Assembly (NCBI GenBank): GCA_963677495.2
Contig: CAXXOU010000003.1
Location: forward strand, 224,001 to 288,000
From: Candidatus Cloacimonadales bacterium
GTDB lineage: Bacteria; Cloacimonadota; Cloacimonadia; Cloacimonadales; JAFGVF01
Length of the DNA: 64,000 bases
Reading direction: 5' to 3'
A program made the position numbers and the translations under genes. Position 1 is the first letter of the stretch, and each line of letters opens with the position of its first letter. The notes below the pieces were generated by a model. The model was given only the letters and a program-made list of their open reading frames with translations. It made no database searches and was not told where the DNA came from. Shown one piece after another: positions 12,785 through 62,964 of this stretch.

Positions 12785-15654
12785 TATTGTATAATTAAAT
12801 AAGGACGCTTAACACCTGCTCTAATTTGAGTAGCAGGAGATATGTATCCAGTTTTGCCTATTGAGCTCTTAAACAGTGAGATTAGGTTTTCTCGCATTGT
12901 GAAATCACCGAATCCCTCAGTGATTATGAATCCGAAACCTATCTTCTCATTACCGGTAAGTGCCACTCCAATCTCATATCCGGAATACTTAACCCATTCT
13001 CTGTTATCAATGGAAGGAGCAATTAATCCTAAGACTCCTGCTTCTTTACATCCTTGAAGAACTGCACTGTCTACTGCTTCCGGACAAACAACAATCTTAT
13101 CTCGATTCTCTGCTTTTAAGATGTCTATTTTCTTTTCTACTAATGCAATCTTTCCTGAACGTTCTTCTCCAAATCCGATTACTCCATCAGCTTCGATACC
13201 ATGACATTTAATCTCTGCGAGTCTTATTGCATCTGAATAAATAACTTCACCGTTCACATATGCCAGCATCTCGTATGGTTTCTTATTGTAATGTATTGTT
13301 ATCGTACCTTTCTGAGTATCTATATCAGTTACAAATCCTGTTGCACTTGTTCTAATAAACTGCTGAACCTCCTTAGAGACTCTTTTTGCAATGATCTCAT
13401 GTCCATAGGCAAGATCTCCGACACGTTTTGTCAGATATCCCTTAATCTGATTTGGTTTAATTTTAAGTTTATTGGCAATATTAATTACAATAGGTTTAAC
13501 TGCATGTTTAACTTGCTCACGAATCAGCACTACTCCAGAATTACAGTTAACCTGCTCAATATACCCTGAAGTCGGCGAGTTGTAGTAATAAACAGATTTG
13601 GATATTCCCATTAATGCAGGCTCTGTATGTTGAAAGATTCTCTGGTCAAAGGAAACTTCATCACCTTGCTTAACTAACATTCCGGACTCCATTTTCTCAG
13701 GAGTAAACTCACTACCAAGCACCTTACTAATCGGTGCCATCATAAGCTTTGGAGGTTCTTTACGATTTAACCCAATAATAGTATCAGGTTTAACTACCGT
13801 CCCGGCTTCAACCTCTATTGTTCCATCGTAAGGTAGCTCTTTTCTTATAACAATATCGGTAGATTTTATATCGTTAGTATCCGGATGGGCAAACAAACTT
13901 TTTTGCGGAATGATATCTGTATGGTCACTATAAAGTTTCATTGTCTTATTGATTGACTTAAAGTCAACAAAGCATGAATCCATAGTGTTAATGACAATCG
14001 GTGTATCTGTTTCAAGCTTGATACTAGTTTCGTTTCCACTTAAGAAAACGTTCTTTTCAAGTTCAATCTCTAGCTCTACTTTACTTTCAACCGGGAAGAA
14101 GTAATATTCATTACTCATTATTTCCTGTGTTTTTCCACCTAGTTTAATGGTCATCAATTTGTACGCTTTACGTTTCTTTTTAAATATTGGCTTTAGATAG
14201 ATCCCTAATCTTTCAATTCCTTCTGTATTCAAAAGGGCATCAGCTTCTGTAGGCATAACTTCACTTAACTTACCAAGATGAGGTGATATAAAGTGCTTAT
14301 CACGCCATATTTCGGTAATACCTACAGGTCTGAAACCATGAATAACCATATGAAGAGCTTGCAGTTTACTAGGTGCATGAGAGATAACACCACCGGCACC
14401 GATTATAACATCCAGCTCTGAGAAGTTGAACTTCATGCCATCAACAACTTTCTCAACATATACATGATCCATAAACGGGTCACGTTGAACTGATTTAATA
14501 TTTGTAAATATGTTTCTTTGGTTCTCGCTGAAATGCATCTCCATATGTTGTCTAAAAGCAATATTGATTGCTTCTATCGCACAAGCCTGCTCTACGATAA
14601 GAGATGTCTGATCTTTTGGTACAAACTGTGGATAAAGCATTTTATTGCTAATATAATTACACACATATTCTGCACTAATTGAATCCGGTAACCAACGTTT
14701 TATATTCTCAATCCCTGTATCTGCCAGAACATTTGATATACTATAACTCATACCTGAGTTTGCTCTTACCGTACGATGATTGTTTCCATTAAGGTGAGAG
14801 AATATATCAGTAGTAGCACCACCAATATCAACTGTCATAAGGTTTAGCTTTTTCTCTCCACTAAGAATTTCCATTGATTTCAGCACAGCCTTTGGAGTTG
14901 GAATAATGTCATCATTAACTATCTTCTTCACACCTGAATATCCCGGAGCTTGCTCCATCACATTCTCCATGAATAATTCATGAACTTTATCCTGTGCCGG
15001 AACCAAGTTTTCATCTTCTGGAGTAGGACTGATATTTGGCACAATATGCATATCAAATTTGTCTTTAAAAACTCCGGCAATTGAATCTCTAATGCTCTTG
15101 TTTCCTGCATAAACAAGAGGTATTTTAGCTTTCCCGAATTTGGGTTCCGGATGTGCAACACTTAGAATCTCTGACAAGCGAATAATACCGGTAAATGCAC
15201 CCCCGTCATAGCCACCTGAGAAAAGGATTATATCGGGGTGAACTGCCTGCATAAGCTCCATCTGTTCTAATACAGATCGTTTATCATCTATAGCTATTGT
15301 TTCGAGAATAACTCCACCGGCTCCAAGAGCTGTTTTCTGAGCCCTGGCAGCTGATTCTACCTTGGTCAGCCCCACTACCAATATCTGAAGTCCACCACCG
15401 GCACTACTGGTTGTTAAGTATTTTATATCATCTGTGAACTGTAATGGTTCTTCACTCTGTATTAGCTTTGTATCAAGGTTCTTTTCAAGTTCTTTTACAG
15501 AATTTATTATACCATATTTAACATCTTCAAAAGGTTTCTCAACAGTTGTTGGGGAGTTGGATAATCCTGCAAGTTTTGCAGAGTCATTATCAAGTTCAAT
15601 CAAAATAGCTTTCGTCGTAGTACTTCCAATATCAGTTATAAGTACTCTTTCCAT
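12784..15654 (-). CDS. GlmL/MutL (glutamate mutase L-like, ASKHA ATPase) protein fused to a ~350-aa C-terminal domain
   Basis: 'TDIGSTTTK', 'SSAGGGL', 'ALGAGG', 'VDIGGATTD'; C-terminal part begins near 'RKELPYDGTIEVEAG'. Confidence 0.75.
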   Translation of the reverse strand: MERVLITDIGSTTTKAILIELDNDSAKLAGLSNSPTTVEKPFEDVKYGIINSVKELEKNLDTKLIQSEEPLQFTDDIKYLTTSSAGGGLQILVVGLTKVESAARAQKTALGAGGVILETIAIDDKRSVLEQMELMQAVHPDIILFSGGYDGGAFTGIIRLSEILSVAHPEPKFGKAKIPLVYAGNKSIRDSIAGVFKDKFDMHIVPNISPTPEDENLVPAQDKVHELFMENVMEQAPGYSGVKKIVNDDIIPTPKAVLKSMEILSGEKKLNLMTVDIGGATTDIFSHLNGNNHRTVRANSGMSYSISNVLADTGIENIKRWLPDSISAEYVCNYISNKMLYPQFVPKDQTSLIVEQACAIEAINIAFRQHMEMHFSENQRNIFTNIKSVQRDPFMDHVYVEKVVDGMKFNFSELDVIIGAGGVISHAPSKLQALHMVIHGFRPVGITEIWRDKHFISPHLGKLSEVMPTEADALLNTEGIERLGIYLKPIFKKKRKAYKLMTIKLGGKTQEIMSNEYYFFPVESKVELEIELEKNVFLSGNETSIKLETDTPIVINTMDSCFVDFKSINKTMKLYSDHTDIIPQKSLFAHPDTNDIKSTDIVIRKELPYDGTIEVEAGTVVKPDTIIGLNRKEPPKLMMAPISKVLGSEFTPEKMESGMLVKQGDEVSFDQRIFQHTEPALMGISKSVYYYNSPTSGYIEQVNCNSGVVLIREQVKHAVKPIVINIANKLKIKPNQIKGYLTKRVGDLAYGHEIIAKRVSKEVQQFIRTSATGFVTDIDTQKGTITIHYNKKPYEMLAYVNGEVIYSDAIRLAEIKCHGIEADGVIGFGEERSGKIALVEKKIDILKAENRDKIVVCPEAVDSAVLQGCKEAGVLGLIAPSIDNREWVKYSGYEIGVALTGNEKIGFGFIITEGFGDFTMRENLISLFKSSIGKTGYISPATQIRAGVKRPYLIIQ

Positions 15655-15759
15655 TATTCCTCCTAACTCGTCCCTATTTGTTTTCTGTATCTAAAGTCCT
15701 ACTAATATATGCGTCAAGTAAAAAGGAAGTTACATTAATTCTATATTCAGATCGATTCT

Positions 15760-15793
15760 ACCTTCTGAATGGTCCAGAGACCTTCAGAATGGT
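15760..15793 (+). repeat. REP-like palindrome, left member of an inverted pair
   Basis: ACCTTCTGAATGGTCCAGAGACCTTCAGAATGGT; hairpin; reverse complement of 16075-16108 with 3 mismatches. Confidence 0.75.
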
Positions 15794-15910
15794 ACTCTTG
15801 CAACTGTTCTTCGACGTTGAACGCCAATCTCATGAGAAATATTTAGAATCACTTGAATAATCAACCAATAGAAAGGAGCGCAAAGTCGTTATACATTCTA
15901 TGCTCTCTTT

Positions 15911-15980
15911 CAACACACGGGACACACTCGGGAATCTCTCGGGGCTCTCCCCGTGTAATTCCCATGAGATTCCTGAACAA
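15911..15980. repeat. 11-bp phased dyad array
   Basis: CGGG at 15918, 15929, 15940, then CCCG/CCCA/CCTG at 15950, 15961, 15972. Confidence 0.65.
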
Positions 15981-16017
15981 ATCGCACTTGGCTCCCGAGG
16001 ATTGAAAGGGGACAAAG

Positions 16018-16042
16018 AAAGTGGCATGCATGATGCCACTTT
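16018..16042. terminator. Hairpin, probable terminator of the lgt-lipoprotein operon
   Basis: AAAGTGGCAT-gcatg-ATGCCACTTT. Confidence 0.55.
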
Positions 16043-16074
16043 AAAAAACTTGAAAAAGGGTGTCTATCCGACTC

Positions 16075-16108
16075 ACCATTCTGAAGGTCTTAGGAGCATT
16101 CAGAAGGT
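16075..16108 (-). repeat. REP-like palindrome, right member of inverted pair
   Basis: ACCATTCTGAAGGTCTTAGGAGCATTCAGAAGGT. Confidence 0.75.
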
Positions 16109-16114
16109 GATTTG

Positions 16115-16675
16115 TTATATCCTCTTTATAGATCCAATAACACTCTCAATAATTGTGTTTTTTTCAACATAGAAATCCTTATCGATAAAGATATCAAACA
16201 TAGCGGTTTGCATCTCATTTAAAGGGATTAAGAGCTTGATGCTTACAAAGTTGTTTTCATTCGTAAACTTATATTGATAGAAATAAAGGTCATTGGCTTT
16301 ATACTCAGCAAAAGACATCTCCGGATACTTATCTTTAAGCTCATTCGTGAATCTTTCGTTTGCAACACCGGCATCATCAAGAATAACTGAACCTGCAATG
16401 AAACCTTTCTTCTCTGGAGCTATGAATACATTAAGATTGCGCAATAAGTTAGTATCCGACCTATTCATCTGAAACTTAATAGCTTCCATAATTACATTAT
16501 CTGCAATCTCCCAACCTAATGGAGGTTGATAGCTATAATTGTATGTTGAGTCAACTATAGCTGAAGCTAACAACTTCTGATTAACTCTAAAATCGATTTC
16601 AGGGACTTTAGGAGCTTTGTCACATGCTACCATCAATAGCGTGATTAGCAGTAATAGTATCAGTATCTTTCTCAT
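16115..16675 (-). CDS. Putative lipoprotein
   Basis: Signal peptide with lipobox LMVA|C; directly downstream of lgt. Confidence 0.75.
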   Translation of the reverse strand: MRKILILLLLITLLMVACDKAPKVPEIDFRVNQKLLASAIVDSTYNYSYQPPLGWEIADNVIMEAIKFQMNRSDTNLLRNLNVFIAPEKKGFIAGSVILDDAGVANERFTNELKDKYPEMSFAEYKANDLYFYQYKFTNENNFVSIKLLIPLNEMQTAMFDIFIDKDFYVEKNTIIESVIGSIKRI

Positions 16676-19469: not shown

Positions 19470-20915
19470 TTATTGTGTTGTTAGCGAATTTATTCCTAAG
19501 AATATTGTTATTATCTGTGATGTAAATGCTATTACTTTCTGTGTATCTGACCAGAGAGAACGTTCTTGTGCTTGCGGTACAAAGACCATATCACCGGCAT
19601 GAACAACAGTATCTTTCTTTGGTTTAATCCATTGTCCTGTTCTAGCATCAACTATTCTAGAACGTCTAAGCTTGCTATTTCTAATTTTGCCACCGGCTTT
19701 TTCAACCCATTCCTTCCAGGTTAAACCCTCTTCAAAATCGTATAAACCGGGATTCTTAACATGACCTGATACTATTACTTTATCCATCTTCTCCGGAACA
19801 TAGATATATGTGCCCGGCTTAATGTAAGTATTATATGCTTCATCTTTGGTTTCCCAAAGCTTGTTTAAATCTACTGAGTATTTACCCTTCATCTCACGAA
19901 GTCTTAAGATGTAATAACCGTATTCTGCATCTGTCATTGAACCGGTTGACATTCTTTTAAGACGCAAATAGTCTTCATCTTCTATTGTATTTAGATTGGG
20001 ATCTAATACATAAGCTAATTTCATATCACCACGTTCAGATGGACCACCACAAAGTTCTAGAACATCCAACAGACTAATCAAACCACCATTTATAGGGTAT
20101 TTTCCCGGATATTTCACTAATCCTTCAATTGTGATATATTCTCTTCCTACATAATTTGGACGTTTGAAAGCATAGATCTCATCACCATGCTTGATTTCTA
20201 TATCACTTGAGCTACCGGGGTTGTTAATCGCATCGACTAGATTAACAGGTAGTGTTTCTCTTGCTGTCATATCTTCTGTAAATCTATAGATAAATGATCT
20301 ATTGGGGTCAGCATCTAGACTCAAACCTAAACCAAGAGCAGCAATAGTTGAGAGTCTGTCACCTGGAAGTAATTCAAGCTTCTGAACCTGATTCCAGCTA
20401 CCATTAAGACTAACTTCCATCTCTTTACAAGGAACAAAAATCACATCACCATCCATTAAGTATGGATTCTGTTCAGTCTCACCCAAACGGAAATAACGCA
20501 TGAGATCAAGTGTCTCTTCACCACTAGCTCTTGTGAGTTTGATTCTTCTTAATGACATCTTACTTGGAAGATTATCAAAGTTAAGAACCTTTTGATCAAT
20601 AATGGTCTTACTATACGCTTGAGGAGCTTCTTCTTCATTTTGAATAGTCGCCATTACCTCTTCTTCTTGTGCATCAAGCAACTTCTCCATGTCCTGATCG
20701 GTATAGAGCTCATTATCTCTTTCACTAATCAAAGAAGCATTTGGAAGCTGGTTGACCATAAAGATTGCGTCAGAGACTCGATTATTATTATCCATAATAA
20801 CAACACCGGGTTGTCTAACATATCCCACAACATTCACTGTTATTGGTAAAGCTGAGAGCAGTGATACAGCTATTGCAAAAAGTAAAATAAGGTTGAGAAC
20901 TTTTCTATTTCTCAT
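19470..20915 (-). CDS. SLBB-repeat polysaccharide export protein (Wza/KpsD-like)
   Basis: Signal peptide; repeated 'VxGxVxxPGxY' and 'NPYLMDGDVIFVP' motifs; start ATG 20915. Confidence 0.8.
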   Translation of the reverse strand: MRNRKVLNLILLFAIAVSLLSALPITVNVVGYVRQPGVVIMDNNNRVSDAIFMVNQLPNASLISERDNELYTDQDMEKLLDAQEEEVMATIQNEEEAPQAYSKTIIDQKVLNFDNLPSKMSLRRIKLTRASGEETLDLMRYFRLGETEQNPYLMDGDVIFVPCKEMEVSLNGSWNQVQKLELLPGDRLSTIAALGLGLSLDADPNRSFIYRFTEDMTARETLPVNLVDAINNPGSSSDIEIKHGDEIYAFKRPNYVGREYITIEGLVKYPGKYPINGGLISLLDVLELCGGPSERGDMKLAYVLDPNLNTIEDEDYLRLKRMSTGSMTDAEYGYYILRLREMKGKYSVDLNKLWETKDEAYNTYIKPGTYIYVPEKMDKVIVSGHVKNPGLYDFEEGLTWKEWVEKAGGKIRNSKLRRSRIVDARTGQWIKPKKDTVVHAGDMVFVPQAQERSLWSDTQKVIAFTSQIITIFLGINSLTTQ

Positions 20916-21863
20916 AATATTCGATAATCCTCGTAATAATTGAATCCAAGTCATGTTTAGGTTCGTAACCTATGTATTCAGCAATCTTAGAGATATCCGG
21001 CATACGGTCACGCATATCTTCGAAACCCTCTTCAAAAACATCTTCATAAGCCATGTGCTCAATTTTAGAGTTACTGCCAACCATCTCTTTAACTTTATGA
21101 GCTAATGCCTCAATTGAGATTGGGTTTGTGCTACCAACATTAAAGATCTCACCTTCACATTCAGGAGTTTCCATCAATTTGATTAATGCACTACTTACAT
21201 CATCAACATCAGTGAAGCATCTTGATTGCTTGCCATCTCCATAAATAACCATTGGCTGTTCAAGAAGAGCTGCTTTGATAAACTTTGGTACTACCATACC
21301 ATACTGACCTGTCTGGCGTGGTCCAACTGTATTAAATAATCTAACGATAACAACAGGAAGCTTTTTTTCTCTGTGGTAAGCAAGAGCAAAGAATTCATCA
21401 ACAGCTTTTGCAGTACTGTAGCCCCATCTACTGATGTGAGTAGAACCTAGTAGTCTATCATCTTTCTCAGAAAAAGGTATCTTGTCACTTTTGCCATATA
21501 TTTCGCTTGTAGATGTTACGAGAACCTTGACTTTATACTTATTTGCAAGTTCAAGCACGTACTCACTACCACAACATTTGTCTGTAATGACAGAAGTGGA
21601 TTTTCAATAATATATTTTACTCCAACTGCTGCGGCCATATGATATACTTGATCACAACCATTCATAAGCTTATCCATAAGCTCTAAATTAAGAATAGTTC
21701 CAACTGTAATTGAGAAGTTAGGGTTTTTCTTTAAATGAGCAACGTTTTCAAGTCTACCGGTTGAAAGATTATCAAGCACATGCACTTTGTGTCCTTGTGC
21801 CAATAATTTTTCAGCTAAATGAGAACCAATAAATCCTGCTCCACCTGTAATTAATATCTTCAT
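20905..21863 (-). pseudogene. NAD-dependent nucleotide-sugar epimerase/dehydratase split by a 1-nt frameshift near 21572 (may be sequencing error)
   Basis: 'ITGGAGFIGSHL' in the 5' ORF; 'STSEIYGK','YSTAK','RLFNTVGPRQ' in the 3' ORF; junction aat gtt gt ggt agt gag needs one base. Confidence 0.85.
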
Positions 21864-22028
21864 AATAACTCCATTTATCAATATTACCAAGCAAATAAGC
21901 TTATATTAAGCCCAATTCTATAATTGGGAAGTATATATTCACTAAGAAAATAATAATTTTCCAGAGTATTCTATCTTGTCAAATGTTTTAGCTAATTTGG
22001 ACTTGCACCACAACGATAGTACCCCAAT

Positions 22029-22291: not shown

Positions 22292-22370
22292 CTCCCTTGG
22301 GTTTCCCTTGCCTTTCCCTTGGTTCTCTCTTGCAAAACCAAGAAAAGAGCAAGGGAGGTGCAAGGGAGAG
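22292..22370. repeat. 11-bp phased dyad array (CCCTTG / CAAGGG)
   Basis: CCCTTG at 22294, 22305, 22316, CTCTTG 22327; CAAG(GG) at 22339, 22350, 22361. Confidence 0.8.
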
Positions 22371-22443
22371 TTGGGTGAGATTTCACCATTTATTCCAGAC
22401 TTCCATCAGACTAATTCTACTCCCACCCATCATTCTTCTCTCA

Positions 22444-22578
22444 GCAGTAATTAGTGATTCCAAACTGGTTTATGCTTGGTGATATGTTGGCAAATTCTTG
22501 GCAATTAGGCCAAGAATAGGCCAAGGGTTTACCAAGGGTTTACCAAGGGTTTACCAAGTGTTTACCAAGAATTACTGC
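22444..22578 (+). repeat. Family-1 phased element (GCAGTAAT...ATTACTGC), 6-unit copy
   Basis: Terminal inverted 9-mers; TGG every 11 bp in left arm; CCAAG x6 every 11 bp in right arm. Confidence 0.85.
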
Positions 22579-36106: not shown

Positions 36107-36240
36107 TCCCAGCAGTAATAATTACCGTTATGATAGCGATATCTCAGTAATAACTTACCAATTACTTAGTAATTAGGCCAAGGATTGGCCAAGAATTGGC
36201 CAAGAGTTGCCTAAGGGTTTGCTAAGAATTACTGCTGGGA
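36107..36240 (+). repeat. Family-1 phased element, 5-unit copy with perfect 13-bp terminal inverted repeat
   Basis: TCCCAGCAGTAAT(36107-19)...ATTACTGCTGGGA(36228-40); CCAAG/CTAAG every 11 bp. Confidence 0.85.
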
Positions 36241-45147: not shown

Positions 45148-45279
45148 CTCTATCATAATAGGTGAGTGAAAGTTGGCTCATTTTTGGGAGTCTCTTGGGC
45201 CTTCCTGGGAATGGAGCACAAGAAAGTGCTAAGATTTTGGGTAGGAAAGCAACTAAATTCATGTCTAATTATGATGGAG
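45148..45279 (-). repeat. Family-2 132-bp element (copy 2)
   Basis: CTCTATCATAAT...ATTATGATGGAG; reverse complement aligns to 33095-33226. Confidence 0.8.
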
Positions 45280-62837: not shown

Positions 62838-62964
62838 CGAATAATTCCTGGTAGACACTTGGCAAACCCTTGGTAAACACTTGGCCTATCCTTGGCCTAA
62901 TTACCAAGAATGTTACAGGTTAATGCCAGGGTTTTGCTAGCTTGAGATCAATTATTACTGCTGA
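62838..62964 (-). repeat. Family-1 phased element, 5-unit copy
   Basis: Minus strand TCAGCAGTAATAATT...CTTGGTAATTAGGCCAAGGATAGGCCAAGTGTTTACCAAGGGTTTGCCAAGTGTCTACCAGGAATTATTCG. Confidence 0.85.

Follow-up and report, generated by a model that had tools for sequence, protein, structure and literature searches.

The window analysed here is a stretch of 64,000 nucleotides on contig CAXXOU010000003.1 of a Candidatus Cloacimonadales bacterium, the genome of which (G000) comprises 3.41 Mb in four contigs and was compared with that of a congener (G001). The window carries three copies of a non-coding element, designated family 1, all of the GGCCAAG subtype. Copy 1 (22444..22578, plus strand) is 135 bp long and consists of a 53-bp left arm, a centre at 22497-22514 and a right arm which, as read from the assembly, has one additional 11-bp unit; contigs of the source runs do not extend across this copy. 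Copy 2 (36112..36235, plus strand) spans 124 bp, and copy 3 (62838..62961, minus strand), the right end of which is worn, spans 124 bp as judged from its register. These coordinates and spans, the third by register, agree with those given by a preceding reading of the bare letters of the window (the sequence-only reading). Its count of six versus five CCAAG words proved accurate for copy 1, which has six exact words, but not for the others, since copy 2 carries three CCAAG and two CTAAG words and copy 3 four CCAAG words and one CCAGG. The perfect 13-bp terminal inverted repeat that it had ascribed to copy 2 was located at 36107-36119 and 36228-36240, giving outer limits of 36107..36240 with no strand assigned; the complementarity of the flanks fades gradually over about 15 bp and has no sharp end. 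Its description of the left arms as nearly unalignable was contradicted, as the three copies match ungapped at 18, 24 and 23 of 45 bases.

A second mirrored 11-bp array, built on a CTTG/CAAG word, was found at 22294..22378 (plus strand) at a fixed distance to the left of copy 1. The composite of this array and a family-1 copy aligned without gaps at five loci with 71-82% identity, and the linker and pyrimidine-rich flank between the two parts (22379..22443, plus strand) were likewise gap-free and common to the composite subfamily. Just to the left of the composite, a gene for an NAD-dependent epimerase/dehydratase (20905-21890, minus strand) is split into overlapping reading frames of 124 and 217 aa by a frameshift or an assembly error. 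At 45156-45239 the window additionally has a mirrored array, now worn, that represents another family of the CTTG type, and in the gap at 15654-16115 a mirrored CTCGG/CCGAG-type 11-bp array that is missing in the matching gap of G001.

Copies and geometry across the genome

Family 1 was represented in G000 by 38 near-full copies together with a few partial or chimeric ones. All copies were intergenic and of mixed orientation, with one overlapped by an 84-codon reading frame, and their orientation classes relative to the neighbouring genes were mixed as well (10/9/5/14). The layout is an exact dyad around the centre CTTGG-N8-CCAAG, with ends at -53 and +70; the right arm holds five CCAAG words in 11-bp steps, the left arm is a worn mirror of the right, and pyrimidine-rich and purine-rich flanks prolong the symmetry for about 15 bp before fading. 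Among the 34 copies with both ends readable, the span was 124 bp in 31, 135 bp in two and 113 bp in one; the spacing in whole 11-bp steps noticed within the window thus extends to the genome. The distance from the left end to the centre was 53 bp in all 37 readable copies of the 38, and the equal left-arm length of the sequence-only reading is thereby generalised, while the right end lay at 71 in 32 copies, at 82 in two and at 60 in one, and was unreadable in three. The eight copies of G001 had the right end at 71 (8/8) and the left end at 53 (6/6 readable). Near-identical pairs exist among the copies of G000. A chimeric element at C2:143060-143260, with an IS3 copy adjoining, combines a CTTG-family left arm with a right arm of family 1, the two being in phase.

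Arrays of four phased tetramers were counted in G000 at several periods. Period 11 yielded 155, of which 154 were non-coding, and periods 8, 9, 10, 12 and 13 yielded 0, 7, 1, 3 and 0, respectively; set beside the counts for the neighbouring periods 10 and 12, the number at period 11 is not a chance result. About a dozen words are in use among them, and two detectors put the array total at 198 and 281. In the metagenome scan, a 23-letter pattern gave no match.

The sequence-only reading had derived selection on helical phase from the occurrence of indels as whole turns. Selection on the geometry was upheld, but this argument was not: all three 11-bp length changes fall in the right arm, which is tandem-like; slippage by whole units there yields multiples of 11 by itself, so that such steps need no selection. 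Constraint is supported mainly by the divergent left arm of constant 53 bp. Among the 35 standard-length copies, left arms shared a mean identity of 58%, and this non-repetitive arm had accumulated approximately 250 parsimony substitutions (467 over the entire element) with zero change in length. In a rough control, in which alignment pairs are non-independent, BLAST gap openings per mismatch were 0.026 for family 1 including its flanks (464 pairs) versus 0.126 for non-phased intergenic repeats of G000 (2530 pairs), and a gap length of 11 was over-represented in phased families only. Within the right arm, the second C, the first A and the G of CCAAG showed 1.0, 0.0 and 0.2 changes per column, versus up to 7.6 in the spacer columns. 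Based on the consistency index (0.38), there is either sequence exchange between copies or recurrent mutation of individual sites, and gene conversion may help to hold the length of family 1. The family-1 element is real and constrained.

Genes and insertion sequences beside the arrays

An all-against-all search of G000 revealed 22 paralogues of an orphan protein family of about 150 residues. The family occurs in 135 of the 232 genomes of the phylum, mostly in several copies, with 376 representatives at E ≤ 0.001 (50% library), and gave no match above noise in Pfam, PHROG, NCBIfam or PDB. In G000, an array occupies the upstream gap of 14 of the 22 paralogues, compared with about 6.4 expected from gap-matched genes, and is lacking there in eight. 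In other genomes, strict mirrored period-11 arrays were found upstream of 14 of 66 orphan genes, downstream of 0 of 65 and in 0 of 125 control windows (upstream versus downstream, Fisher p=6e-5, a statistic that ignores kinship), and none was found near these genes at periods 9, 10, 12 or 13. A relaxed detector, applied to a set including G000 in which two loci were omitted and the wrong gene was picked at one, gave 28/87 upstream versus 1/86 downstream. By the same detector, one clade of 22 rows in the orphan-protein tree had an array at one locus only. A conserved reading frame of about 50-60 aa follows the genes of the array-less clade of the family (L262, L266, L268, L273, L276-L278 and L318).

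In the predicted structure of the orphan protein (pLDDT 87), a three-stranded sheet forms the N-terminal part and helices come after it. Fold searches of PDB and viral libraries returned nothing at E ≤ 0.001 (Z ≤ 3.8) and lent no support to a nucleocapsid-like fold; weakly scoring proteins of the ribbon-helix-helix (RHH) type made up 9 of the 50 fold-search rows (Z ≤ 3.8, over 43-72 residues). The family is mostly basic, with a median pI of 9.1 and a mean net charge of +5.3 over the first 60 residues; the paralogue linked to the GGCCAAG subtype of the window has a pI of 5.8 and its sister one of 7.7. The genes of the family-1-linked paralogues, with dN/dS of about 0.04-0.09, are under purifying selection. 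Across 69 orphan loci of other genomes, no conserved ATPase neighbour was found within 1.5 kb. Several arrays upstream of orphan genes are abutted by a DnaA-box-like 9-mer, often as an inverted pair (C2:33661, C3:24324 and C4:777579 in G000; L251 and L289). A separate orphan family of six members, 192-201 aa in length (G000 C1:784049, C3:297731, C4:1047341, C4:1464981, C4:1491765 and C4:775143), has its genes in the vicinity of Y1 transposases, of four-helix-bundle genes or of the 150-aa paralogues.

Two paralogues of G000 have a family-1 copy upstream with its left arm towards the gene, namely one linked to the GGCCAAG subtype (C4:946147-946602) and one linked to the ACCCAAG subtype (C4:1498355-1498855). 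Both start with MKSYL, and a promoter-like stretch after the array is common to both. The GGCCAAG subtype accounts for 30 copies of G000, including all three in the window, and the ACCCAAG subtype for eight. G001 has a single such gene, the product of which is identical to that of C4:1498355 at 142 of 151 residues (next match, 48%); this orthologue has an ACCCAAG copy upstream, and all eight family-1 copies of G001 belong to the ACCCAAG clade. In G002 and G003 (83% and 72% complete), neither a close paralogue nor a family-1 copy was found. The subtypes therefore follow the paralogues across four genomes of the genus, two of them incomplete, and the CACTG word has the same paralogue partner in G000 (C4:1447755-1448207) and G001. 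No orphan-family gene lies beside 36 of the 38 family-1 copies. The pairing is accounted for without any binding by common descent of the gene together with the DNA upstream of it.

The arrays are also marked by an insertion sequence. An IS3-family element of 1357 bp with an HTH orfA and an rve orfB (NF033516, 214.7 bits, cut-off 160) occurs in six copies in G000, with left ends at C2:359475, C2:235670, C2:143089, C3:93959, C4:220988 and C4:1237819. All six lie in one orientation and begin outside the right end of a family-1 copy, at distances of 4, 13, 14, 15, 16 and 38 bp; in one case this copy is a chimeric one. The cognate gene and the IS3 insertions are located outside the window. Their target triplets differ and are duplicated in four of the six; in two of the six, a CACTG array follows shortly past the other IS end. 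Helical phasing of the insertion was considered and set aside, the offsets being too few and too clustered. No such placement rule was found for IS21 (17 copies in G000). As read by eye, both close IS3 relatives with a readable left end (one in G002, 79% identical, and a broken one in G001) sit just past a CACTG array, on its right-hand side. Of six loci that are more distant, also read by eye, two (G009) adjoin an 11-bp CTAAT array, three are not so placed, and the sixth falls at a contig end. This targeting indicates that something biological distinguishes these arrays. It is paralleled by IS1397 and ISKpn1, which use different REP types and for which the choice of target is reportedly determined by the transposase (PMC1525189).

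In the wider species collection, runs of four CCAAG words at 11-bp spacing were estimated to occur in 1300 stretches, a figure obtained from 6 of its 64 parts without a control period, and mirrored words lay nearby at 11 of 118 CCAAG-array loci. At two Bacteroidota loci, arrays lie upstream of small genes with a product N-terminus resembling that of the orphan family. Alignment of the two profiles gave a weak match (hhalign probability 33%, E 4.6e-4, 37 N-terminal columns) and ESM a lead of 0.80 for 18% of members, and PF19781 matched neither family. Among relatives, arrays were found upstream of 13 of 32 and downstream of 5 of 31, compared with 10 of 514 background windows. The link between array-gene pairs of the two phyla is accordingly a lead. 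Unmirrored 11-bp CCAAG arrays were separately observed inside genes that combine Schlafen AlbA_2 and HATPase_c_4 domains with Fic-like_C or HTH_24, where they occupy the linker preceding the winged helix, in 12 of 85 proteins scanned (L037, L040, L061, L064, L070, L075, L106, L108, L109, L144, L148 and L154), with two more adjacent.

Mobility and comparison with known systems

In a scan of symmetric boundaries 0-44 bp outside the element, a duplication of 3-9 bp was present in at most 5 of the 38 copies at any boundary, in accordance with the sequence-only reading, which had seen no clear target-site duplication. No longer element with family-1 ends was found in G000, and the end motif matched at 77 sites other than the copies themselves, of which 69 were in coding DNA and none led into an array. 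The MITE-like spread entertained by that reading is thus borne out as regards dispersal, but not as regards target duplication or a longer element with the same ends. The objection it had raised against itself, a match to known IS ends, did not materialise among the IS3 and IS21 elements of G000, the ends of which differ from those of family 1. Candidate partners were likewise discarded: the 14 Y1 loci carry other repeats within 400 bp on each side, PF00589 (tyrosine recombinases) has just two matches in G000 of about 310 aa each, PF00239 (serine recombinases) has none in G000 or G001, and Pfam scans of 85 neighbours revealed no common family beyond secreted FlgD-tail proteins. The Y1 genes (e.g., C2:350304, C2:265272 and C4:1452046) have long tandem or inverted repeats of their own, unrelated to the 11-bp arrays.

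Sister-family arrays were absent from all three syntenic gaps comparable in G001, where nested repeats blur the array boundaries, and the array class therefore comes and goes. For family 1, no empty site was found in G001 at the eight loci tried, because the flanking genes are non-adjacent there at every one. In a comparison based on 800 kb (26%) of G001, adjacency of the genes was kept at 0/8 family-1 gaps, 3/46 other array gaps and 43/116 array-free gaps (p=5e-6), that is, at 3/54 array-bearing versus 43/116 array-free gaps. Arrays may cause the gene-order breaks or may merely collect in plastic regions.

Family 1 does not belong, on the features tested, to MITEs, REP-RAYT systems, type II partition systems or IS607 ends. 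Bacterial MITEs such as ERIC, Correia and RUP are small, dispersed, non-coding and bounded by terminal inverted repeats. Family 1 shares similar size, terminal repeats, dispersal and lack of coding capacity, but differs in its strict internal geometry, its linked orphan gene and the lack of a target duplication or matching transposase. With REP/REPIN/BIME-RAYT systems, as described in the available parts of PMC1525189 and PMC5581495, it shares dispersed intergenic palindromes paired with one gene, and the IS3 targeting resembles that of the REP-targeting IS1397, ISKpn1 and ISPsy8, in that IS3 inserts at repeats and its relatives use another repeat type. However, no Y1 transposase is encoded by the paired gene, phased words form a 124-bp lattice where REP systems have a short stem-loop, and the IS3 inserts 4-38 bp outside the array end rather than within the repeat. 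On plasmid R1, parC is bound cooperatively by approximately one ParR dimer per iteron, with autoregulation (PMC2241845, available part), and family 1 resembles this site in having two rows of five 11-bp units near a small-protein gene. Nevertheless, parC is a single site at which direct repeats surround a promoter, and it is accompanied by a ParM ATPase, whereas family 1 is mirrored and chromosomal, with 38 dispersed copies; only two of these show two 11-bp sets adjoining an orphan gene, with rows mirrored rather than direct, and the 69 orphan loci have no conserved ATPase neighbour. At IS607-family ends, according to the available part of PMC6188088, helically phased short motifs nucleate a cooperative TnpA filament, with no target-site duplication. 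Phased short motifs and the lack of a target-site duplication recur in family 1, but IS607 has a serine transposase and no terminal inverted repeats. By analogy, the layout would be most like parC-ParR, and the pairing and IS targeting most like REP-RAYT. No description of such arrays and nothing on DUF6266 was found in the literature searched, with subscription journals and supplements outside the search, and the available parts of PMC5581495 and PMC6749651 hold no passage on tandem inverted repeats and on 11-nt units, respectively.

Readings of the element

The element could be an ordinary MITE of a lost transposase, with 11-bp steps produced by neutral slippage and words left as relic transposase-binding sites. 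Terminal inverted repeats, dispersal, near-identical pairs and the sister arrays missing from G001 agree with this, as do the phased motifs at IS607-family ends (PMC6188088, available part); but the ends fade gradually, neither target duplication nor a long element with these ends was found, recombinases amount to two of the tyrosine type and none of the serine type, a relic would gather the small indels that family 1 lacks, and the link to the orphan gene is left unexplained. This explanation, already weakened, is improbable. Just as improbable, in our estimate, is an element acting as a single-stranded hairpin, either as RNA or, in the manner of REPINs, as ssDNA on which a Y1 transposase would act; in this view the 11-nt period would reflect an A-form helix with regular internal loops. 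The dyad is indeed exact in 124-bp copies, the predicted folding energy is -41 to -65 kcal/mol per 170 nt (raw values without a shuffle control), 13 Y1 transposase matches lie above cut-off in G000, and arms pair slightly better with their own partners than with shuffled ones (33.0 versus 32.2 of 62; 4/2000 shuffles, in statistics that ignore relatedness). Against this, only 33 of 62 mirror positions are able to pair, the word positions show one pair type in nearly all columns and no compensatory change, G-T and A-C mismatches (152 versus 128) favour no strand, the window has no Rfam match, none of the 14 Y1 loci is directly flanked by a family-1 element, and copies with unequal arms persist. 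To judge from the letters, the pattern is more in keeping with recognition of the sites in double-stranded DNA than with folding of one strand.

A lattice read by a protein, be it the cognate paralogue or another host factor, is probable. As to the reader, we give the predicted cognate paralogue slightly better than an even chance, the element then being a putative docking platform for the small orphan protein. In such a mechanism, two facing rows of a 5-bp word, 11 bp apart in a dispersed non-coding dsDNA array, would be coated cooperatively by the paralogue whose gene follows the master copy, one unit per turn; whole-unit slippage would be tolerated because phase is kept, and small indels would not. 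Both binding and cooperativity are predicted here, and by analogy with ParR on parC the protein may control the promoter of its own gene. The most tenuous step is that gene-less copies might spread without target duplication and provide further sites for the protein to bind. The acidic pI of 5.8 of the cognate paralogue, the lack of a DNA-binding fold match, the 36 gene-less copies of 38, the eight array-free paralogues of G000 and the 22-row clade with a single array speak against this reading. The first two of these would suit a lattice read by a different host factor, such as a regulator or nucleoid protein, with the small gene as a co-duplicating regulated passenger. Linkage by descent yields the same pairing, the DnaA-box-like 9-mer stands beside several sister arrays, and unmirrored CCAAG arrays lie in or beside unrelated Schlafen-AlbA_2/HATPase_c_4/wHTH genes. 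Nonetheless, about a dozen words in one genome would need as many readers, the words track the paralogue across species, each subtype occurring only where its paralogue does, and the Schlafen-AlbA_2/HATPase_c_4/wHTH protein was rejected as reader, since G000 has no HATPase_c_4 or Fic-like_C match. We consider a reader of this kind rather unlikely; were it the case, the lattice and its IS targeting would still be undescribed.

Should the cognate paralogues be the readers, a wider picture may be sketched, though we regard it as doubtful: an undescribed address system of Cloacimonadota, and probably Bacteroidota, in which each paralogue would polymerise on its own mirrored 11-bp lattices, the pairing or moving of lattices would seed copies and mark rearrangement junctions, and an IS3 lineage specialised on lattices would switch family as its transposase diverges. 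The IS3 element provides an independent biological readout of the arrays, from a small transposase family whose target differs from one array family to the next. Word-specific reading by each paralogue would account for some 200-300 arrays in G000 and would amount to natural orthogonal protein-DNA pairs on one lattice, with subtype and paralogue co-diverging.
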